A stretch of 64,000 nucleotides of DNA from a virus. Taxonomy: Duplodnaviria > Caudoviricetes. The stretch's first letter is position 1. Every line of letters starts with the position of its first letter. Made by a program: the position numbers and the translations under genes. This document shows, in pieces, positions 30,513 to 62,076 of this stretch. A model generated the notes under the pieces. The model was not told where the DNA came from and made no database searches. It saw only the letters and a list, made by a program, of their open reading frames with translations. The stretch lies in the IMG/VR virus record IMGVR_UViG_3300023100_000003, positions 1 to 64,000 of that record. One strand, 5' to 3'.

Positions 30513-32006
30513 TTAAAATGAATTTAAAGGATTACTAACTGAAGTATCAATCTTACTGAGACCGTGCATAAAGTTAGGAAGTTTTTTAGATTGAGCTAAG
30601 AACATAAAAGCATCTCCTGTAGCATCAACCATATCTTCCTTCTGGTTACGGGTTGCGGTAAAATTTTCTAACTCTGCATAATAAAAACTATTATTATTAA
30701 ATATTTTATTTTCAAAGTCAGTTGCACAACCTTTAACTATATAAATTCCACCAGCTTCACTTGCTGAACAGAAAGGTCGAAACCTGTCTAGTTTTGACTT
30801 ATTAGTAGGTCTTACTTTAGAACTAAAACCTTCTTCAGATAGTTTTAACTGCATCATCTTAGCAGCAGCTTTACCCGCTGCTCCAGGATCTTGAGGTAGA
30901 ATAATTTCTACTCTTGATCCGTCACGTTTTCCGTTCTCTACTATATGTTTATGTACTTCACCATAAGTACCTCTAAACCTTGTTACTTCTTCAATTACAT
31001 AAGTTCCATCTCTAAGGAAATGCATTTTTACAGAAGCGGTATAGTCTGGATTTGGAGTAGTTTCTGATTTCTTATTACCCGCAATATCATATGCACGACA
31101 GGATTTTATTATATCTTTTGGGTGAGGCGCTTGAGGTATTTCAGTACACCATTCTGATTTCCAAAATCCGCTTGTCTCTTCACGAATATTCCAGTTACCA
31201 TAAAGGTCTCGTTCTTTTCGAACTTTCTTTAAACCTTGTAGGTTTGCTAAATATCCGGGATTTGCTTTTATAAGCGGAGGGTTGTCAAAAATATTTGCAC
31301 CGATCATAGTCATAGAAAGAGGCAGAACATCAGCACCAAACTTTTCTATTAACTCTTCTCTTGTATCTCCCCAAACCATCTCATTATCAATACGTATGAA
31401 CCATCTGCGAACACCACACTTATCTGGGTCAGCACGTCCTGCATGTTCATGACCTTCAGGCAACAACCACCAATCCACCCAATCTCTTAGGAAACTTGAA
31501 GGTGAAGGGTTGCAGGTTAAAACCATTTGAGGTTTCATTTTAGCTTTGGTACGTAAACGAGACAAAACCATTAGGGCATGGTCGAGCTGGATTTCTGTCG
31601 CCTCATCTATCAAACAGAATGAAAACTGACCACCACGCATCGACTCAGCATCTTTATCTGTTTCAAGATGGCTGAACACTATTTCAGCTTTAGATGGGAA
31701 TATAAATTTTTGAGCTTTGTGATTTACTTTCACTTGATTATTGGTAAAGGCACTATACATACCTTTAGCTTCGTCGAAAATAAATCCTGATTTCATGATC
31801 GTAGAAGAATTTCTACGAATAACTATCCCTCTAAAATGAGGATCATCTACCCATTTTAGAAGTTTTAATAATGACGTGTAAGTCTTCCCAGACCCCATAG
31901 ATCCACCATATACAATGATGTCACTTAAGTCATCTTGTAAAAGTAGAGCTTGTTTGAGTGATGCGGGTCCAAAGGAATACATAGACTCTTCAGGAGCATC
32001 TATCAT
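30513..32006 (-). CDS. terL: Terminase large subunit
   Basis: Walker A YGGSMGSGKT, Walker B LIDEA, TCNP coupling motif, RNase H-like AYDIA...DMVDA. Confidence 0.95.
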   Translation of the reverse strand: MIDAPEESMYSFGPASLKQALLLQDDLSDIIVYGGSMGSGKTYTSLLKLLKWVDDPHFRGIVIRRNSSTIMKSGFIFDEAKGMYSAFTNNQVKVNHKAQKFIFPSKAEIVFSHLETDKDAESMRGGQFSFCLIDEATEIQLDHALMVLSRLRTKAKMKPQMVLTCNPSPSSFLRDWVDWWLLPEGHEHAGRADPDKCGVRRWFIRIDNEMVWGDTREELIEKFGADVLPLSMTMIGANIFDNPPLIKANPGYLANLQGLKKVRKERDLYGNWNIREETSGFWKSEWCTEIPQAPHPKDIIKSCRAYDIAGNKKSETTPNPDYTASVKMHFLRDGTYVIEEVTRFRGTYGEVHKHIVENGKRDGSRVEIILPQDPGAAGKAAAKMMQLKLSEEGFSSKVRPTNKSKLDRFRPFCSASEAGGIYIVKGCATDFENKIFNNNSFYYAELENFTATRNQKEDMVDATGDAFMFLAQSKKLPNFMHGLSKIDTSVSNPLNSF

Positions 32007-32568: not shown

Positions 32569-32645
32569 TGGTCTCTTCTGAATGATTCGAACATTCGGTT
32601 TCTTCGTCCCAAACGAAGCGACTTGACCAGCTAGCCTAAGAAGAG
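32569..32645 (-). tRNA. tRNA-Pro(UGG)
   Basis: CTCTTCT/AGAAGAG acceptor, CTTCG-TTTGGGA-CGAAG anticodon arm, TTCGAAT T-loop, encoded CCA. Confidence 0.93.
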
Positions 32646-32649
32646 ATAT

Positions 32650-32725
32650 TGGATGCTGAAGCCTTGGATTCGAACCAAGAATAAAAGGTTATGAGCCTCT
32701 TGTGATACCATTTCACTAGCCAGCA
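32650..32725 (-). tRNA. tRNA-Met(CAU), elongator-type (or Ile2), irregular acceptor stem
   Basis: GTGA/TCAC D arm, AGAGG-CTCATAA-CCTTT anticodon arm, CTTGG-TTCGAAT-CCAAG T arm, encoded CCA. Confidence 0.82.
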
Positions 32726-36124: not shown

Positions 36125-37507
36125 TTACTTAACCTCAATTACACAATTATGGCTACTACCCAACACTTGTTCAAAACATCCTCTCATAACTTCTATCCCC
36201 TCATCTTTAAATCGTTCTTTAACAATTATACTATCATGCACAGGAATGATAACTTCTCCAATACTGTTGAAATGGCCTATCACTAGATCCATTATTTTAC
36301 TATCAATATTCTGTAATAGCAATCCCTTAGGTTCATGGAACCATAATCTAATGTAATCATTCCGTTCTACGATAGCTTCAATGATTGCAGTATAGTCTAT
36401 AAACTTAGGACATTTACCTTCTTCTACGAGTTTAGGTACAACCCCCTCTACGAACATCATGTTAGCTAGATTTCTCCTTGACTCCCACCAACTAGCTACC
36501 CCTTTTGGATCAACACTAATACCACTATTCAAGAGTATTAAAGATGCAAACTTACCAAAGTATCTGCATGTACGATCTTCATAATTAGGCAAAGTAATTG
36601 CATAGGGGTCAAAATCAACATCAAGTTCAATTCCATCTAAGGTAGCTGCTATTCTGGGGTGTAATGACTTGAAGTCAATCTCTACAGTTGGTTCTCCATC
36701 TATCCTAATCTTAGGTCTAATACCACGTTCCATAATCTTAGCTCCATCACCTATAACAAAACTTCGCCCACCTTGCTCAAATGATGAGTTATTGTAAACT
36801 TTCTTTAGTTGAATATCATAACACTCTTCCCCGACTTCTATCATACTACTTCTAGTCATCTTGTTATACTTGTTTAGCATTTGAACTACTTCTTTCTGAT
36901 AAAAGGGTAGAGGTGTTACTACTGGCTTCTTGTCAGAGTTTCTTATTTCCAAGACTGAAGGTATTGTAGGTATCCTACTCTTGTAACAAATAGTCTTAAG
37001 ATGTTCGTACAACTCTTCACTTAGCCTCATACTGGAGCTTATTGTCTTATCTGGAACTAATATACCACCCTTCATTACCCAAGAGCCTATACACCCTACA
37101 GTTAGATTACCTCTACCTGAGTAGTGCAACCAATCGAAAACACTTCTAGAGAATGTGTAGGATACTTTACGGTTAACTTTAGTTCCATTATAGATCAAAG
37201 GTAAGCTGTAAGTCTCTTTATGTAAAACTACAGGAACTTCATCTCTACCAAAAGATACTTGATACATTGCATTATATACAAAACAAGCAACAGCTTGGTA
37301 TATCTTTGTTTTCTTGCTTTCTGTAAGCTTCAGTATTACTTGTTGGCCATACTCTTCTATGTATTCGTTATACAGATTTTCTACAGTGGTAGTAAGGTAT
37401 TTAGGAACCTTATAATCCATTAGATAAATACTAATAATACATCTCCATACTACTACTCCTTCATTAGTGAACAAAAAGTTAATAAAATAGCTCTCTAACC
37501 CAAGCAC
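36125..37507 (-). CDS. Minimal A-family/T7-like polymerase (TV-Pol-like); start uncertain (possibly ATG 37420)
   Basis: GGR motif, motif A VEIDFKSLHPR, motif B-like RYFGK, LQNIDS helix, motif C IPVHDSII; no exonuclease domain recognised. Confidence 0.65.
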   Translation of the reverse strand: MLGLESYFINFLFTNEGVVVWRCIISIYLMDYKVPKYLTTTVENLYNEYIEEYGQQVILKLTESKKTKIYQAVACFVYNAMYQVSFGRDEVPVVLHKETYSLPLIYNGTKVNRKVSYTFSRSVFDWLHYSGRGNLTVGCIGSWVMKGGILVPDKTISSSMRLSEELYEHLKTICYKSRIPTIPSVLEIRNSDKKPVVTPLPFYQKEVVQMLNKYNKMTRSSMIEVGEECYDIQLKKVYNNSSFEQGGRSFVIGDGAKIMERGIRPKIRIDGEPTVEIDFKSLHPRIAATLDGIELDVDFDPYAITLPNYEDRTCRYFGKFASLILLNSGISVDPKGVASWWESRRNLANMMFVEGVVPKLVEEGKCPKFIDYTAIIEAIVERNDYIRLWFHEPKGLLLQNIDSKIMDLVIGHFNSIGEVIIPVHDSIIVKERFKDEGIEVMRGCFEQVLGSSHNCVIEVK

Positions 37508-43743: not shown

Positions 43744-44895
43744 ATGAAATACATAGTGGAACAAAAGAAGCTTGAATCGTTATTAGATAGTGAAGTGTGG
43801 GATCTACTGGCAGAACATAATGCTATCGTAGCTGGAGGAGCTATCACATCTCTATTTTGTAGTAGAGAGATAATGGACATTGATGTTTATTTTCGATCTG
43901 AAAGAGATCTGGTTAAGGTATTAGCTGCTATATTTAGCATTGAAAGTATTTCTGACCATGAGATAGGAAGTTTTTCTGTACATGTGTCAGGTTTAAGTCA
44001 ACGTACAATTATCTGTTCTAACCAAGAGCAAATGATTCAATTCATGACATTCAAATACTTCCCAGATGTACAGGATATCTTCGATACATTTGATTTCACT
44101 GTGTGTATGGGAGCTTATGATTGTAAGACACAAGATTTCACATTACACCCAGAATTCTTTAAACACAATTCCCAGCGTTACCTTAAGTTCAACACAGGAA
44201 CAGCTTTCCCTCTTATGAGCCTCATGCGTGTAGATAAATATAGGCAGAAAGGTTATGAGATTAGTAAAGCTGAATTACTTCGTGTAATCTTCTCTTGTAT
44301 GCAATTAAACTTGAATTCTTGGGAAGAAGCTAAAGATCATATTGGTGGGATGTACGGATATGATATGTCTAAAGCTTTTGAGGAAGATAAAGACTTCACT
44401 CTAGTTGAGCTATCAGAACAGTTATCAACGCTTCAAGAACGTGGTACAGAGCTTTACACACCTATTGGCCATGCTAATAAAGGCTTCTGGGAAATTGCAG
44501 AAGAACTATTCTACCGTCCTGAAGAAATATTACCTGAACCAGAATTACCTGTGTTTGATGATGAGAAATATTTATACAAATGTGTACAATCAGATGGTAC
44601 AAGTTATTATGGTTCCTCATATGGTAAAGTGGATTACATTGTAGGTAGTATTATTGATGTCCCAAGTGGTGGATTGTTTTTCCATAGCTCAAGTAAGAAT
44701 CCTTATGTACAGGATGATAATTGGGTTGAGTGTGAATTATTAGAAGGTGCCTTTAGTTCAGAGTATGGTAATCAGAAGAGAGTAGTCCATGGTGGGAAGG
44801 TTAAAGTAATACGTAGATTTAAAGTTAATAGTAGCCGTAATAGTTGGAGTGAGCTACAGACGTGGATGTTTAGTAAATTTGGTAATGAGGAATAA
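43744..44895 (+). CDS. Pol-beta-superfamily nucleotidyltransferase (CCA/poly(A) polymerase head-like)
   Basis: VAGGAITSL...DIDVYF, FDFTVC and RVDKYRQKGY. Confidence 0.75.
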   Translation: MKYIVEQKKLESLLDSEVWDLLAEHNAIVAGGAITSLFCSREIMDIDVYFRSERDLVKVLAAIFSIESISDHEIGSFSVHVSGLSQRTIICSNQEQMIQFMTFKYFPDVQDIFDTFDFTVCMGAYDCKTQDFTLHPEFFKHNSQRYLKFNTGTAFPLMSLMRVDKYRQKGYEISKAELLRVIFSCMQLNLNSWEEAKDHIGGMYGYDMSKAFEEDKDFTLVELSEQLSTLQERGTELYTPIGHANKGFWEIAEELFYRPEEILPEPELPVFDDEKYLYKCVQSDGTSYYGSSYGKVDYIVGSIIDVPSGGLFFHSSSKNPYVQDDNWVECELLEGAFSSEYGNQKRVVHGGKVKVIRRFKVNSSRNSWSELQTWMFSKFGNEE

Positions 44896-44899
44896 TAAC

Positions 44900-45949
44900 A
44901 TGGATAATACACAGAAAGTAGTTTGGTATAAAAGTGAAGATGGTATTTACGTAAGTAAACCTACATTCAACTACACTGGAAATAGGGATCGTATCAATGT
45001 AGCTTTAATAAACGATAAAGTACCAACGGATACTCATCTCTATGGCTGGCAATTTGTTGAAGGTGAAACAGAGCTTAAATCTTTAAAAGATAAGAAAACT
45101 GGCCCTATCTGCAATATCCGATATGAACTTATCAATCCAAGTTTAGCTGGTGATAAAATTCCTCTGGTGTTGACAGATAAACAAGTCAATGAAGAGGAAG
45201 ATTGGGAAGATGATGATGAGCCTTACAGTTGGCATAATCCTGAATTTAATAGTTTAAGATCTTTATATGAACGTAAGTATGACAGAGAGCCAGCTTTCTT
45301 TGTAGAGGTTCCTTTTGAAGCTGAATATTTGGGAGAAATCCTTGCTGACAATGTTAACAACATAAGTAATGCAACTTACAAGATTAATCGTGGACATTAC
45401 GCTAGTGATGGTTTTCAAGATATAAACATTAAAGATGTAGTTAAGTATTATGAATTAGAACAAATGTTAGTTTCAGATTTATTATTACATAATCGTCCTT
45501 GCTATCTCGATTCACCTACTACATACAAAATAGTTCGTAATTACATTAAAGATAATATCAACCCTAAAACAGCTATAGTATCTTCTGATTATGATTTCTG
45601 TTTTACTGTGGAAAAGAAGATATCAGTCAAGCCTTGGGTTAATCGTAGAGAGATTCTTACTAGTAGAGGTAAATCTTATCGTCCACTAAAGTTTACAAGC
45701 AGCAATGTGGAATACAAGAAAATTAAAGTATTTGAAATGACTAATTCTAAAGATAAGTATCAAGGCTATAGTGTTATTGATGGATTCAAAGGAGATAATC
45801 TAAAGAATTTGATTGACAATATTAAACTCTTCTTAGATGAATTATTAGAATTCATTAATCAGGAAGTATCAGAATGTGAACACTGTAAAGGTACTGGTCA
45901 CTTAGTGATGGATACTTTTGATAAGAATAAGCGTACTCAAGATGATTAA
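44900..45949 (+). CDS. Conserved phage hypothetical protein with C-terminal Zn-finger
   Basis: SDYDFCFTVEK and CEHCKGTG. Confidence 0.6.
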   Translation: MDNTQKVVWYKSEDGIYVSKPTFNYTGNRDRINVALINDKVPTDTHLYGWQFVEGETELKSLKDKKTGPICNIRYELINPSLAGDKIPLVLTDKQVNEEEDWEDDDEPYSWHNPEFNSLRSLYERKYDREPAFFVEVPFEAEYLGEILADNVNNISNATYKINRGHYASDGFQDINIKDVVKYYELEQMLVSDLLLHNRPCYLDSPTTYKIVRNYIKDNINPKTAIVSSDYDFCFTVEKKISVKPWVNRREILTSRGKSYRPLKFTSSNVEYKKIKVFEMTNSKDKYQGYSVIDGFKGDNLKNLIDNIKLFLDELLEFINQEVSECEHCKGTGHLVMDTFDKNKRTQDD

Positions 45950-49400: not shown

Positions 49401-49655
49401 ATTTAAGAAACAGGTAAGTGAGGAAGGGAAGTGAGTAAATATTTAAGTAGAGAAACAAGAAACAAACTAAAAGAAAGATTTGATATATCTAGAGCTGGCT
49501 ATGTATACACATCCCCAACAACTGGTAAAGAAATTGTTGTAAGGGCAGAAGACCTACATGATCTACATGATTTTCTAGTATTCACCTCAACCAAAGAATA
49601 CCATGAATGGGTTAAAATGAAACTAATGGATCTCAGTAATGACAGACTTCGATGA
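46454..49655 (+). other. Run of small hypothetical CDSs (46454-46846, 46843-47037, 47030-47254, 47247-47639, 47636-47833, 47943-48236, 48396-48665, 48674-48880, 48882-49070, 49234-49434, 49431-49655)
   Basis: Co-oriented, overlapping ORFs with SD motifs; 46454 has DCTIIAF...THAL...DG and 48396 has ICGARH...EQGF, both typical of phage hypothetical families. Confidence 0.55.
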
Positions 49656-50337
49656 ACTCCCAGAAGAGATAGTACAAGCCCACATAGATGGGTTAGAGTA
49701 CCACATGAAGCAGGGATTGATATCACGTAAACAACTAGAATATATTAACTCTGTATCTAAACGTAAGCTTAATGAGTTACTGTCAGAAGACAATACCAAA
49801 GAGTACTTAAACAAGGAACAAGGCAGTAAAGCCTATACCAAGATCTTAGAGACAGGGATAACAGCACAGGAAGCATTAGAGTATGTAGCTGAGTATTATG
49901 GTAAAGACATAGAGTGGGTAGAAGAGGTAAAGAACAACAACTACATCCATGCTAAACAAGTATTCATAGACCATCAAGAACATGATGTACAGAAGGCTAT
50001 GAAGCAAGATGGTACACTACGTCCTAAAGCTTTAAAGACAAGCAAAACACCTAATAGTCAACTCAGGGAGCTACATGCTCAGCGTAAGCTGCATAGCACT
50101 TTGAATGACTTGAAGAGTACCACTACAAATCTATCTACAGAAGTAGAAGATTTACAAGCTAAATCTGTTATCACTGATTCTAATGTAGATTTGGTAATGA
50201 ACATACTAGATGTAGACCAACTCTCTCTGAAAGAGAAGGCCAGTAAGCTCAAAGCTCATGGCTTTACTCAGACCAAAATATCTACCTACTTAGGAGTTAC
50301 TACACGTACCCTAAAGAGATGGTGGAAAGATATCTAA
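49639..50337 (+). CDS. Coiled-coil protein with C-terminal helix-turn-helix
   Basis: GFTQTKISTYLGVTTRTLKRWW HTH; last gene before the non-coding control region. Confidence 0.7.
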   Translation: MTDFDELPEEIVQAHIDGLEYHMKQGLISRKQLEYINSVSKRKLNELLSEDNTKEYLNKEQGSKAYTKILETGITAQEALEYVAEYYGKDIEWVEEVKNNNYIHAKQVFIDHQEHDVQKAMKQDGTLRPKALKTSKTPNSQLRELHAQRKLHSTLNDLKSTTTNLSTEVEDLQAKSVITDSNVDLVMNILDVDQLSLKEKASKLKAHGFTQTKISTYLGVTTRTLKRWWKDI

Positions 50338-50367
50338 TTAAGAATTATTCTTATATGTCCCCTTTTT

Positions 50368-50399
50368 GTCACCTTCATTGGTGACTTTTCTCTTCTTTA
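50368..50399 (+). terminator. Intrinsic terminator
   Basis: GTCACC-TTCATT-GGTGAC followed by TTTTCTCTTCTTT. Confidence 0.7.
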
Positions 50400-50511
50400 T
50401 AAAGGAAAATTTATATTTCCTGCTAATCCCTTTCCCCATATTTTATAATCCCCCTATAAAAACACACCTTAGTATTATGTATCTATGAAATATCTGTAGG
50501 TAGGAATATCT

Positions 50512-51296
50512 TATAACGGAGTTATAGACAGTAATTAGTACAGCAAATACACCCCCTTGGGATACCAAGATAACGAGACTTGGTGCTTATGTTACGTAAT
50601 TCTAATACTATCAATATCTTAAGTCCGTGAGGACTAGTGTTTAACAAGGTCCCCCACCGACCTATTGTTCTCTCCGAGCTTATTGAAATATCTACCACAT
50701 CTCACAATCATTGTCAATAGTATAATCGATAATAAATAACTATTCTACAGCGTAGCTGTAATAGGATATGACTATCATCACTGTAAGTGATACATAAGTA
50801 CATATAAGAGTAGTAGAGAGATAAATAAACAATAAAGAATGATAAGATGATAGAGATAAGAGATATACATTATATACGTGTTCCATGTCATAAGCTATGC
50901 TTATGTGCGTGTTCACAGTCTACGACTGTTTCACGTGGAACAATAGACTGTGATAGAGTATTAATAGTATAGCTTACGCTATAGGGTGAGTGTTGTTGGT
51001 TTAACAACCAAGGGATGAATAGATATAACCATAGGGTGTATGTACGCTATCGCATAAAATTGTACTATTCTTAGCAGTAATACTATCTATAGCGTAGCTA
51101 TAATAAGTTATTGATTACTAAAGTAATAATGTATATTCGTAGCTACGCTACATATAGGTGCTATCTTGTGTTTACACACAACATGTAGTGCTATTATTGA
51201 TTAGTTTATTTATGTATTTCCTTACAATAATCAATGGATATAATAAATGTTATAAGCATAGCTTATGATAGATGTTAATAGTCTAAGCTACGCTTA
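50512..51296. repeat. Array of about 12 short inverted repeats with G/A-N-A or GNNA loops
   Basis: Examples: TACAGC-GTA-GCTGTA, TATAGC-GTA-GCTATA, ACAGTC-TAC-GACTGT, TAAGC-TAC-GCTTA, TATAAC-GGA-GTTATA. Confidence 0.8.
50927..50942. promoter_or_regulatory. parS: Chromosome-type parS (ParB loading) site
   Basis: TGTTTCACGTGGAACA matches the consensus TGTTYCACGTGRAACA at 16/16. Confidence 0.75.
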
Positions 51297-51304
51297 AATA
51301 AAGC

Positions 51305-51333
51305 TTGCACTAAGGTACAGATAAGACTAATAT
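51305..51333 (+). promoter_or_regulatory. Early sigma70-like promoter
   Basis: TTGCAC-17 bp-TAATAT. Confidence 0.6.
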
Positions 51334-51688
51334 AAGTACATACAAGAGACAAACAACAAACAAAGGCAAAGCAAATGAAAAGGTTCTTAGTGTATGCCAT
51401 CATCATTGGAACAATAGGAAATGTTATGTTGTCTAGTGCATCAAACTCTACTGTAATGAACTCCACAGCTGTTAAACTCTCTCAATTAGGTGAATAAGAT
51501 GAACGACATTAAATACATTGAAATACAGTTTTTAGTTAAGGTTAACAAACCTAAGATTAAAATTACTTTGGTTAATCTTATGAGTCGTGATGATGCACTC
51601 TTTATTGCTGATCAGGTTAAGTTAGATAAATCAGTATTTAGTGTTACCTGTTGGACTGAAAAGAATACTTTTATCTAGTAAATAGTTG

Positions 51689-53162: not shown

Positions 53163-54559
53163 ACATACATGAGCTAGGGGATGAGCCTACTAGCAAACCC
53201 AAAGAGAATCGAGATTATGAAAAACATCACTGAACACAAAGGAACCCTGTACATTGTTGAGCGTTTGAAATCAAGTGTTAATGGTAACCCTCGTTATAGT
53301 TGTTTGTTAGTAATGGATGGTACAGAATCTATTGCTTTTAAAACTGGTGTTGATAGTAGTTTTGGGTACTCAATCACTAACTACCGTGATAAAGAAGTTG
53401 TTGTAAGTCTTGGTACTGTACGTAATCAAACTACCCTTAATGATATTAAACTAGCTTAGGTGATACCATGCAAGCAAAAGTTTGGGTTGATATTAGAAAA
53501 GGTAGAAAAATAGCCTGTTCTGATAAAATCGTAGTCGGTAAACTTATGGAGCTTATGTTAAGAGAAAACTCCGAGACTGATTACCAATTGGGATTAATTG
53601 AGCTTAGAAAGGGTTCATCTTTTAATTTCAAGTGTGAAGGTTATTCTGTTACCGTTAAACCACTACATAATTATGTAGATCATTATTAAATCTTAATCAG
53701 GAACTAAACAAAATGAACACATTTGCTAACGTAACAAACATCCGTAAGAACACAGTAAGTGCTTATAAAATTATCTCTATGTTCAACCTTATAGGTGCAT
53801 TAGAAAAAGCCTACGTAGTGGCCTGTAATAGCCTTAGAACAGCGAATAAGATTAAGGATATAACATTGTCTAAGTTTGCCCGTGGTCGTGCTCTAAAGCT
53901 TATTCATGCAATCCGTACTGAGTTAAAGAAGTATTGCAGTAAAGGTTTTAGTTTGCTAGAATCTATTGCATATCGTGGTGTACTTCTGCCGAAGCTCTAA
54001 TCCTCCTTACAGTCGTTTTAGTATTGTTAATAAAATTTAATAGGTAATATCATGATCTTTAATAATGTAGTATTGACCAGCGAAACAATAGAATCGACTA
54101 AACAATGGTTTATTAACAATGCTAAAGCCTGTATAGCTGAAGCTGTTAGTGGTGAAGTCTTTGTCAATGATTTAGAAAGCTATATTGATAGTCAGAACAG
54201 ACGTATTAAAGACTTTGAAGCTAATTTGAATCAGAATAACTTCACATTTATGCAAAGAGCTTATTTCCATCAAACTGGCCATGATGTGGCCCTATTACAT
54301 TTATAGGTGATTTTATGTTAAATTCAAAAGATGAGTTAATAGGTTTTGTTAAAGGGTTTAGCTGTAAAGAGTCGGCATTTGACGCAATGAAGTTAGTACA
54401 TGTTGCCGAACCTTTGGCGGAATGGTTTTATAATACATATTCTTTACGAAATAAAAACAAGAGTCAGAAAGAAGCATTTTTTGATTTTTATGAAGAGAAC
54501 ATTGTTATACGGTAAAAGGTTCTTATAAAGATTTAATCTAAATAAATGTTGTAATTTAC

Positions 54560-61116: not shown

Positions 61117-61313
61117 TATGAACCGCCCTTACTAAACCATTTATCTCCCTTATACTGGACTAATGGAAGGGACTCAGGGAGGAATACAGTTTCTTGTTTA
61201 CTTTGACAGATAGAGCAAGTAGGATGTGATTCAGATATCCTATGAGATACTTCAGTGATTGTATTGTGATTAGAGCAGGTAGGTAGGGTACAGCGGATGT
61301 TGTATGTAATCAT
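61113..61313 (-). CDS. FmdB-family zinc-ribbon protein
   Basis: MITYNIRC...C...CSIC...YKGDKWF; the only - strand gene recognised in the right arm. Confidence 0.6.
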   Translation of the reverse strand: MITYNIRCTLPTCSNHNTITEVSHRISESHPTCSICQSKQETVFLPESLPLVQYKGDKWFSKGGSY

Positions 61314-61369
61314 GTTAGTATGAATCTTAATGTTATTAGTTAGTATTATATAACTGTCCTTTGGTGAGT

Positions 61370-61745
61370 AAATTCTGGATAGAACTTCCCTATAGATCTC
61401 CATACCCCATAAGGAGCCTAAGAAGAACTATAAGTTAAATCCTCAGAATCTACTACCTAAGACATCTGTCCTTTGGAGCCGCAATATTCTCTGCACTACA
61501 GGCAGCATACAATTAAGTATGGGATAAGATAATAGACAGCTAATCTACATCTCGTGATGTGCTTCCGCTTTAGCCAGCGTCATAGCCCTGTCACATCAAC
61601 TCATCTAAGAGCAACTTCCTCAGGTTGAACATGCCTTCTTTGTTCTACTATTGGTACAGAAGAGGTTATCCCAGAAAACTCCCAATAGACAACTAAATCT
61701 TTAGTCATACATCTATGTTACCACGACAATTCAATTCTGTCTATT
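61370..61745 (-). ncRNA. Candidate large structured RNA or leader
   Basis: Nested stems TGGGATAA/TTATCCCA, GACAGCTA/TAGC-CC-TGTC, ACATC/GATGT, CGCT/AGCG, CTTCT/AGAAG; GC-richer than flanks; no convincing ORF. Confidence 0.45.
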
Positions 61746-62076
61746 AGTATTTAACTATCAAGTCAATAGTTTTAATTAATAATACCATTAATCCCCATAT
61801 AACCATTATGACTATAACCTATAACTATTCAATCTAAAAGATAGTGATCTTTTTGTTGACGTATGTTTACGTTCTACATAGAATGGCTTCCAACAGAGCA
61901 AGACACTATTTAGCGTAACTACACAAACAGATATAACTAAATAGTGTTTTGAGTTGAAGGATTTAGTTAATAGGATATATAAGTTACAAGGGATAAGCTT
62001 ACGCTTATAACACATAACACCAAGGAATGTGAGACTAATTAAGAACCATTAATTTGAAATTATTAGGAGATTCATT

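Follow-up and report, generated by a model that had tools for sequence, protein, structure and literature searches.

The recognition and cutting of the concatemer junction and the duplication of the repeat in phages with short direct terminal repeats (DTRs) are understood only in outline, mostly from T7, for which a DNA hairpin containing the terminal repeat has been reported during infection (PMC4281155, citing Chung and Hinkle 1990). DTRs of 526 bp in the Otagovirus phiPsa374 (98,287 bp; PMC9796965) and of 1165 bp in the Pakpunavirus Adele (PMC12846349) have been mapped with PhageTerm, and P7-1 has a DTR of 1143 bp (bioRxiv 10.1101/2025.11.26.690771). The papers on phiPsa374 and Adele mention no hairpins, palindromes or parS sites (PMC9796965, PMC12846349). 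Repeat Region 3 of phage T5, which lies inside the terminal repeat, is an untranslated region of 1.2-1.7 kb with many palindromes and host-protein boxes (bioRxiv 10.1101/866236). In the promoters of phage N4, a C-G closing pair together with the 5' G and the 3' A of the loop lets short hairpins extrude at physiological superhelicity (PMC4496689). The same loop and closing features define an extraordinarily stable mini-hairpin DNA motif (PMC13037366). Here, we analysed the first 64 kb (64,000 nucleotides, hereafter the window) of the 94,754-bp IMG/VR virus record IMGVR_UViG_3300023100_000003 (CheckV 100%), a genome of the myovirus type. A gap of 1037 nt (50338-51374), the sole large gene-free gap in its region, carries an array of short DNA hairpins, and our literature searches found no description of such arrays. 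We put at about one in two the probability that this gap is a DTR/concatemer-junction region, in which the hairpins would be cis-acting DNA-shape signals for making and/or protecting the genome ends.

The hairpin array and selection on its pairing

An earlier sequence-only reading had listed 12 inverted repeats in the gap and an outlier at 61993, and all of them were found where it had placed them (Table 1). The repeat at 51043 is present but imperfect, with one C.A pair on the + strand, which is a G.T pair on the - strand. Four perfect hairpins were missing from that list, namely CTTGG-GATA-CCAAG at 50556 and those at 50996, 51114 and 51166. Hairpins were defined by a perfect stem of at least 5 bp and a loop of 3-4 nt, and they were counted against 2000 dinucleotide-preserving shuffles. 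The gap has 17 such hairpins (4.1 +/- 2.1 in the shuffles), 11 with a stem of at least 6 bp (1.2 in the shuffles) and 10 that are closed by C-G and have an R-N-A or G-N-N-A loop on either strand (0.09 expected). Comparison with shuffled sequence, which had been proposed as a check, thus finds the array strongly enriched, as none of the 2000 shuffles attained any of the three counts. Every other 1-kb window of the 94.7-kb genome has at most 9, 4 and 2 hairpins, respectively, on the same counts. The outlier at 61993 is probably not part of the array module.

The hairpins share features of loop and closure. The hallmark of the mini-hairpin motif, a GNA or GNNA loop closed by a two-pair G-C/C-G stem, is found in the gap. 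Four of the five GCGNAGC/GCTNCGC heptamers in the genome are located there, as GCGTAGC/GCTACGC, and GNNA forms occur on the - strand as GCTTACGC and GCTATCGC. AGC-N3-GCT has 13 copies genome-wide, six of them in the gap. The features enriched in the array, C-G closure and a loop with 5' G and 3' A, match those needed for extrusion. Both strands of the gap, taken as single-stranded DNA, fold better than shuffled sequence (z = -4.0 and -3.7). A 26-nt repeat ties the hairpin region 50746-50791 to 51086-51111, and the hairpins at 50889-50929 are nested among arms that resemble half-sites of parS (TGTTCCA at 50879 and TGTTCAC at 50910).

Similarity searches with the gap DNA gave no match among 50,697 phage records, and single-protein locus searches of IMG/VR with the helix-turn-helix (HTH) protein encoded to the left of the gap and with the Gad1 protein gave none either. 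The HTH protein has 33 homologues, with 49-74% identity, in metagenome assemblies. The relatives were fetched as metagenome contigs (L009-L018 and L021-L028) through these homologues, where alignment-based locus scans yielded only L027 and L028 in addition. A scan of IMG/VR for the pattern CCCCTCCAGAAA...AAATATC returned 10 matches, of which only the record L037 is a true relative, and this record was included. The HTH gene is the last gene ahead of the gap in all relatives whose synteny was examined, and the module composed of this gene and the gap is found in at least 11 relatives. Every contig fetched has a gene-poor gap of 0.5-1.7 kb after the HTH gene. Conservation is recognisable in all of these contigs over the first ~350 nt of the gap, with the ATGTCNCC repeat and terminator, TTTCTCTTnTTTATAAAGAA, a C-rich motif and copies of AAATATC(T/C); the C-rich motif reads CCAATCCCCCTCCAGAAA in the relatives and AATCCCTTTCCCC in the window. 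Past this segment the gap sequence is scarcely alignable.

The array recurs in several of these gaps: L009, L012, L016 and L017 have 8-12 hairpins per 500 nt, and L026 has 6-7. These five gaps and that of the window together contain 97 hairpins in 7.1 kb, or 13.7 per kb, while the flanking DNA has 3.2 per kb. C-G closure is seen in 55% of the pooled hairpins and in 17% of those of the flanks, and GTA/TAC loop centres in 20% and 2.6%, respectively.

The sequence-only reading had described the stems as covarying. Different stems within one genome are not covariation. Alignment with relatives, which it had proposed as a check, does find compensatory changes at homologous hairpins. L016 and L017 are 63% identical across the gap and retain 8 of 14 hairpins, with seven double-sided compensatory changes, such as ATCAGC/GCTGAT to ATCAAC/GTTGAT, ATGTG-CTGG-CACAT to ATGCG-CTGG-CGCAT and ATTCG-CTGG-CGAAT to GTTTG-CTGG-CAAAC. 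In an alignment of six Otagovirus genomes, 53 pairs in nine helices are 91% paired, and 14 pairs changed on both sides, compared with 5.6 +/- 1.8 in shuffled alignments (0/500) and 1-6 in slid controls. Among the near-perfect hairpins, a lone G.T pair is no more frequent than other mismatches on either strand, which suggests that Watson-Crick pairing is needed on both strands, contrary to what is expected of an RNA helix.

These alignments show that selection maintains pairing in the hairpins. They point to an array that acts as DNA structure, rather than as RNA or as dimer operator, because the sequence between the hairpins is poorly conserved, the stems are kept by compensatory changes and G.T pairs are not enriched. 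The core inference of the sequence-only reading, that selection acts on intrastrand pairing of the DNA over duplex sequence, is supported by the compensatory changes, by the Watson-Crick-only stems and by loop and closing features that favour extrusion.

Two side observations concern the alignments. In columns 196-239 of the Otagovirus alignment, homologous hairpins have inverted loops (TAC/GTA, TTC/GAA and CAAG/CTTG) on stems that are kept, in a flip-flop-like manner; such flips are the pattern expected from intrastrand pairing in vivo. In the alignment of L016 and L017, a block of ~250 nt at columns of about 340-600 is ~80% conserved beyond its hairpins, for example at TTTTAGnGGnTTTGGTTATTAGT and ATAGATAACAG. 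This block has three stem-CTGG-stem hairpins, all in + orientation, and no counterpart in the window.

Genome ends in cultured phages and rival readings

Arrays of this kind lie alongside mapped termini in two genera. Between the last gene of phiPsa374 and the start of its DTR, a stretch of 440 nt contains, after a terminator, seven mini-hairpins, in the order TAAAGC-GTA-GCTTTA, GAAAGC-TAC-GCTTTC, AATGCC-AAA-GGCATT, AAAATGC-GTTA-GCATTTT, CTAAGC-CAAG-GCTTAG, AAACC-TAC-GGTTT and GATAGC-GTA-GCTATC, and the DTR starts next. The interior of the DTR has one more hairpin, three 19-bp direct repeats and a parS, TGTTTCACGTGGAACA. The left end of phiPsa374 begins at a mini-hairpin, cta|AGCGAAGC; in both phiPsa374 and phiPsa315 this physical end reads cta|AGCGAAGCGATC, the classic GCGAAGC mini-hairpin. 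In Adele, the left end tta|AGCGACAGCTTA lies within the hairpin TAAGC-GACA-GCTTA, and there are 17 hairpins in the 800 nt around it. In each of phiPsa374, Adele, PPSC2 and M5.1, none of 1000 shuffles reached the observed number of hairpins. The surroundings of the phiPsa374 DTR have convergent gene arms, as do those of the relatives L009 and L014. The record of vB_PsaM_M1 is not arranged by physical ends.

The window has the same module, with at least eight C-G-closed GNA/GNNA hairpins in non-coding DNA after the last gene of the right arm and a terminator. Of the origin, terminus and entry roles that the sequence-only reading had left side by side, the terminus is favoured, in that phiPsa374 and Adele have this module around the DTR start mapped by PhageTerm. 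Short motifs may extend the correspondence. The C-rich motifs AATCCCTTTCCCC and AATCCCCCT resemble AACCCCTTTCC, which in phiPsa374, phiPsa315 and Adele precedes the mapped left terminus by 26-46 nt; this homology is short and tentative. The DTRs of Otagovirus and Pakpunavirus end in ...GGTT|AA. Similarly, GTGAGTGTTGTTGGTT|TAAC (50986-51005) tentatively resembles the mapped right ends ...TTGGTT|AAAC of phiPsa374 and ...GTGGTT|AAG of Adele, and GTTGGTT|TAAC follows the parS of the window by 59 nt (51001 - 50942). We tentatively place the right DTR boundary at 51001|51002 and the left one at about 50,46x-50,51x, near the first hairpin (50512). The positions of AATCCCTTTCCCC, the first hairpin, parS and GTGAGTGTTGTTGGTT|TAAC, taken together, would give a DTR of ~0.5 kb, from about 50,46x-50,51x to 51,001, containing a host-type parS. 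This projection suggests that the DTR holds about 7 of the 12 hairpins listed earlier and that 5 lie just beyond it, followed by a probable early promoter.

The mechanism that we propose is as follows. As a myovirus, the phage would package its genome in unit lengths that carry short DTRs. Stems of 5-7 bp, closed by C-G on G-N-A or G-N-N-A loops, would extrude from negatively supercoiled or transiently single-stranded DNA. The arrays would lie around the start of the DTR, and the left physical end would begin at a TA|AGC-GNA/GNNA-GC hairpin, both as seen in the cultured relatives only. The extruded hairpins might mark the junction for terminase or for an accessory nuclease. The cut site may be one AGC-loop-GCT apex, with the remaining hairpins serving as auxiliary sites or as strand-displacement aids during duplication of the repeat. 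After cutting, the first bases of the genome, with a self-folding first heptamer, could fold into a nuclease-resistant mini-hairpin cap. For the window phage we infer the DTR at this place, the extrusion of the hairpins and the factor that reads them.

Several points weigh against this proposal. The shared motifs are short and could be due to chance. The contig runs through the gap. TerL is only ~40% identical to that of the mapped phages, no homologue of the HTH gene was found in phiPsa374 or Adele, and no enzyme that recognises the hairpins is identified. The order of the parts differs, as the Otagovirus hairpins lie mostly before the C-rich motif and the cut, and those of the window mostly after the presumed cut. 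Finally, the array is absent from some relatives with the same HTH-gap module (L010/L011, L014, L024/L025 and the L037 record), so the hairpins are not indispensable in the clade. The packaging type of the window phage is itself only inferred, because the similarity of its TerL (30513-32006) to the DTR-packaging group is distant: alignments covering 94-97% of the protein give 40-43% identity with phiPMW, vB_PsaM_M1 and PAK_P5-like phages, which are Pseudomonas phages related to Felix O1 and Pakpunavirus. Relatives of this TerL in IMG/VR have at most 41% identity.

Four contigs were noted for their ends. Those of L013, L018, L021 and L028, which are different relatives, break off 148-197 nt past the HTH stop, either at or next to the hairpin that first follows the C-rich motif; in one, the last base falls within the loop of the first hairpin, and in another it falls six bases beyond a hairpin. 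These ends are possibly the footprint of a physical end, or fold-back artefacts, and the indication is weak.

In two cultured phages with mapped ends, one hairpin of the array sits exactly at the cut, and a conserved row of extrudable mini-hairpins at this site would supply a concrete and testable cis-signal for junction processing. If true, the proposal would explain why these genomes begin with sequences of the GCG(N)NAGC type. A wider form of it concerns a large clade of 90-100 kb myoviruses, in which the genome end would be coded in DNA shape: the target recognised and cut by terminase or a partner nuclease would be an extruded C(GNA)G mini-hairpin instead of a stretch of duplex, the end would carry a self-folding, exonuclease-resistant cap, and the array and a hijacked host parS would organise the junction. 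We regard this wider form as possible but doubtful. Pakpunavirus and Otagovirus are therapy and biocontrol phages, for which end-forming signals matter in engineering and in correct genome annotation. The hairpin module may also be of use as a signature for predicting, from sequence, the termini of phages known only as uncultured contigs.

The gap could also be a replication origin, which we consider unlikely. The HTH protein would bind the AAATATC repeats, the extruded hairpins would give the T7 gp4-like primase-helicase or host DnaG an entry or priming site, and parS would be origin-adjacent, as on chromosomes. The AAATATC(T/C) repeats are conserved beside the HTH gene in all relatives, with 1-6 copies per gap, nearly all in + orientation and mostly 130-350 nt past the HTH stop. 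Moreover, the phage has genes for a primase/helicase and a DNA polymerase, mini-hairpins are found at the priming sites of G4 and RSF1010 (PMC13037366), the loops are strand-biased (CTGG, TTC and TAAC/TTAC on the + strand, their complements not seen), and a purine-rich stretch at 50790-50870 is 77-78% AT. However, scans for TTATNCACA with at most one mismatch found no clustering of DnaA boxes in the gap or in the relatives, and the HTH protein has no known initiator fold or family. No specific evidence was found for the role as priming signal that the sequence-only reading had considered. The arrays sit exactly at the mapped DTR boundary in phiPsa374 and Adele, which makes a role in packaging or at the ends more economical; origin and end roles are not mutually exclusive.

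It is improbable that the array is a DNA-entry signal. Together with a host-protein site, parS here and DnaA boxes in T5, it would pause or anchor the incoming genome, as in the injection-stop region of T5. Repeat Region 3 of T5 has a similar architecture (bioRxiv 10.1101/866236) and early genes with sigma70 promoters lie next to the gap, but what the T5 palindromes do is itself unproven, and no genes for two-step transfer were identified in the window phage. Furthermore, an early gene of L009 (9074-9271), homologous to 53492-53689 of the window, is inverted relative to the HTH gene. The gap thus travels with the HTH gene and not with the early operon, and it is independent of the direction in which the early genes run. 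From this arrangement, the two arms flanking the gap can apparently switch their relative orientation.

A similarly low probability applies to duplex operators, in which a dimeric phage protein, such as the HTH protein or the small terminase, would read the dyad AGC-N3-GCT without any hairpin being formed. About half of the sites in the window have the common core AGC-loop-GCT, and the mapped left-end cut of phiPsa374 and Adele falls immediately before the AGC that opens the GCG(N)NAGC mini-hairpin motif. Nevertheless, many members lack the core (ATCACT, ACAGTC, AGTCC and TTGTGT), C-G closure is enriched, and the arms do not behave as those of a dimeric-repressor operator: the flanking stem positions change symmetrically, in a compensatory manner and not independently, and the non-palindromic centre is constrained to GNA/GNNA and flips its orientation between homologues. 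Neither the symmetric changes nor such a centre would be yielded by a homodimer operator, which is therefore disfavoured.

We consider it very unlikely that the palindromes are a mutational by-product, made or perfected without function by template switching at quasi-palindromes in a region that is often single-stranded. Hairpin positions do turn over fast when the window is compared with L012, its closest relative, the loops of homologous hairpins are inverted in the way that intrastrand template switching would yield, and some relatives have no array. Yet individual hairpins persist across sequences that are 63-80% identical, the composition of loop and closing pair is highly specific, and the arrays recur at the same genomic landmark across genera and G+C content.

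Least probable of all are elements at the level of RNA, whether RNA stabilisers, a non-coding RNA with structure, or hairpin promoters of the N4 type that a phage polymerase would read. A 460-aa family-A-polymerase-like protein at 36125-37507 could be invoked for them. However, the gap is preceded by an intrinsic terminator and has no good promoter directed into it, G.U pairs are absent, and the loops are found in either orientation. The genome matches no Rfam family other than tRNA, it has no giant virion RNA polymerase and no repeated phage-specific promoter, and the centre of the loop is mostly T instead of a purine. An N4-like or T7-like phage RNA polymerase that uses the hairpins was considered and dropped, given the family-A likeness of the 460-aa protein and the lack of a repeated phage-specific promoter.

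Other features of the gap and the genome

The features of the gap and its borders are listed in Table 1. In all relatives (L009-L026), a direct repeat ATGTCNCC-N3-ATGTCNCC stands straight after the HTH stop codon, overlapping the terminator, and is followed by TTTCTCTTnTTTATAAAGAA. These elements could be a protein-binding or regulatory site that is separate from the hairpins. IHF and GATC site scans were uninformative.

Table 1 Features of the gap and associated elements in the window.
Feature	Position	Strand	Basis or remark
HTH protein gene	49639-50337	+	232 aa, C-terminal HTH_23-like helix-turn-helix; phrog_4151, weak PF13384
Conserved gap start, ATGTCCCC / GTCACC repeat	50355-50404	+	In all relatives fetched
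Intrinsic terminator GTCACC-TTCATT-GGTGAC and T-run	50368-50395	+	In all relatives fetched
Palindrome CTTTATAAAG	50395-50404	+	In all relatives fetched
C-rich motifs AATCCCTTTCCCC (50425-50437) and AATCCCCCT (50447-50455)	50425-50455	+	Relatives have CCAATCCCCCTCCAGAAA here
Direct repeats of AAATATC(T/C) type	50488-50692	+	Copies at 50488, 50686; variants at 50503, 50612
Hairpin TATAAC-GGA-GTTATA, first of the array	50512-50526		Scan; inverted copy in relative L017
Hairpin AGTCC-GTGA-GGACT	50622-50635		Scan
Hairpin TACAGC-GTA-GCTGTA	50746-50760		Scan
Hairpin ATCACT-GTA-AGTGAT	50777-50791		Scan
Hairpin CATAAGC-TAT-GCTTATG	50889-50905		Scan
Hairpin ACAGTC-TAC-GACTGT	50915-50929		Scan
Canonical chromosomal-type parS TGTTTCACGTGGAACA	50927-50942		16-bp palindrome TGTTNCACGTGNAACA; core kept in relatives
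Hairpin TATAGC-TTAC-GCTATA	50968-50983		Scan
Hairpin TTGGTT-TAAC-AACCAA	50996-51011		Scan
Hairpin TACGC-TATC-GCATA, one mismatch	51043		Scan
Hairpin TATAGC-GTA-GCTATA	51088-51102		Scan
Hairpin ATTAC-TAAA-GTAAT	51114		Scan
Hairpin GTAGC-TAC-GCTAC	51139-51151		Scan
Hairpin TTGTGT-TTAC-ACACAA	51166-51181		Scan
Hairpin ATAAGC-ATA-GCTTAT	51252-51266		Scan
Hairpin TAAGC-TAC-GCTTA	51284-51296		Scan; TAAGC/GCTTA stem is that of the Adele terminal hairpin
Probable sigma70-type early promoter TTGCAC-N17-TAATAT	51305-51333	+	Consensus match; conserved in L012; ahead of open reading frame 51375
Outlier hairpin ATAAGC-TTAC-GCTTAT	61993-62008		Probable 5' leader of DUF932 gene, downstream of promoter-like site 61856

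The parS core is also found in the gaps of L009, L015, L016 and L026, where, as in the window, it lies 475-590 nt past the HTH stop. An identical 16-mer is present in both DTR copies of phiPsa374 (389-404 and 98150-98165). It is not present in Adele, vB_PsaM_M1, PT11-V22 or the L037 record. PF02195 and PF13614, for ParB and ParA, are absent from the genome of the window phage, and neither protein was found in the other parS-bearing phage genomes. Binding at parS would therefore need a host ParB, and the companion site suggests that lytic phages may recruit this protein to their DNA ends.

The structural and lysis genes are on the - strand at 1-37.5 kb, wrapping from 92.4 kb. A + strand block at 37.9-50.3 kb has PhoH, dCMP deaminase, Gad1 and others. 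It is followed, from 51.4 to 91 kb, by small early open reading frames, replication genes (the T7 gp4-like primase/helicase and the DNA polymerase) and nucleotide metabolism. The gap is flanked on the left by the 232-aa HTH gene with its intrinsic terminator and on the right by the first small early open reading frame (51375). The HTH protein has no sequence match in the PDB and no significant or informative fold match by Foldseek or VIA-align, and the ESM Atlas gave only leads below 0.9 (HTH_23, PriCT_1 and Terminase_5). It is classed as a DNA-binding protein. GC skew tracks gene orientation and gives no mark of an origin. The largest open reading frame of the 94.7-kb genome, 941 aa, is a ribonucleotide reductase.

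A homologue of Gad1 (anti-Gabija; PF25705, E 7e-64) is encoded at 44849-45949 on the + strand, in the operon whose last gene encodes the HTH protein; among the relatives, L017 bears Gad2. The 460-aa protein encoded at 36125-37507 on the - strand belongs to phrog_4756 and has more than 3000 homologues in a representative library. Its predicted structure is confident (pLDDT 89), and Foldseek relates the palm and fingers to those of family-A DNA polymerases (Taq and apicoplast Pol), at an E of about 1e-5 but a low TM of 0.27-0.34. From this model, it looks like a minimal PolA-like enzyme, besides the replicative polymerase of 753 aa. Rfam gave a second tRNA at 32654-32724 (-), beside tRNA-Pro (32569-32645), which ARAGORN did not report. 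A second gene-free stretch of ~960 nt (61117-62076) is located upstream of the DUF932 gene and has a sigma70-type promoter-like site, TTGACG-N17-TAGAAT, at about 61856-61884.

Comparison with known systems

In chromosomal ParABS systems, parS is the 16-bp palindrome TGTTNCACGTGNAACA, which is found at 50927-50942, but the cognate ParB/ParA on the same replicon is missing. The d(GCGNAGC)/d(GCGNNAGC) mini-hairpins of G4 oriC and RSF1010 ssiA are the same stable loop-closure motif in cis-acting DNA (PMC13037366). Those replicons are single-stranded and have one or a few hairpins, whereas the window has an array in a double-stranded DNA phage at a probable genome end.

The sequence-only reading had drawn an analogy with N4, which holds for the physics of the hairpins and fails for membership of the family. 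The early promoters of N4 have, like the hairpins of the gap, a stem of 5-7 bp, a 3-nt loop, a C-G closing pair and a loop with 5' G and 3' A (PMC4496689). In contrast, the giant virion RNA polymerase of N4 (about 3500 aa) is not encoded by the window phage, and the centre of the N4 loop is a purine (-11 A/G), while that of the window is mostly T (GTA/TAC). Furthermore, the window has at least 12 hairpins in 800 bp, in both orientations, and no open reading frames or transcription units behind individual hairpins.

The injection-stop region of T5 is likewise a large untranslated region in or next to the terminal repeat, with many palindromes and host-protein sites. It differs from the gap in that its palindromes and repeats are conserved in sequence and order, its DTR is about 10 kb, and it has DnaA boxes rather than parS; paired DnaA boxes within inverted repeats, as in T5, are not found in the window. 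The concatemer junction of T7 resembles the proposed one in its short DTRs and in the cutting of the junction with duplication of the repeat. T7 is an unrelated podovirus with its own RNA polymerase, and its junction has one larger inverted repeat and promoter-driven processing, with no row of a dozen triloop mini-hairpins.

A further close likeness is to the DTR regions of the Otagovirus phiPsa374 and the Pakpunavirus Adele. These are non-coding regions of ~1 kb after a terminator, with 8-17 C-G-closed GNA/GNNA mini-hairpins, direct repeats and the C-rich motif AAnCCCTTTCC, and phiPsa374 also has the identical parS 16-mer. Like the window phage, phiPsa374 and Adele are myoviruses of similar genome size with a related TerL; their G+C content is 48-49%, compared with 36% in the window phage. 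New here are the low-G+C uncultured clade, the version of the module that is linked to the HTH gene, and the co-conserved parS.

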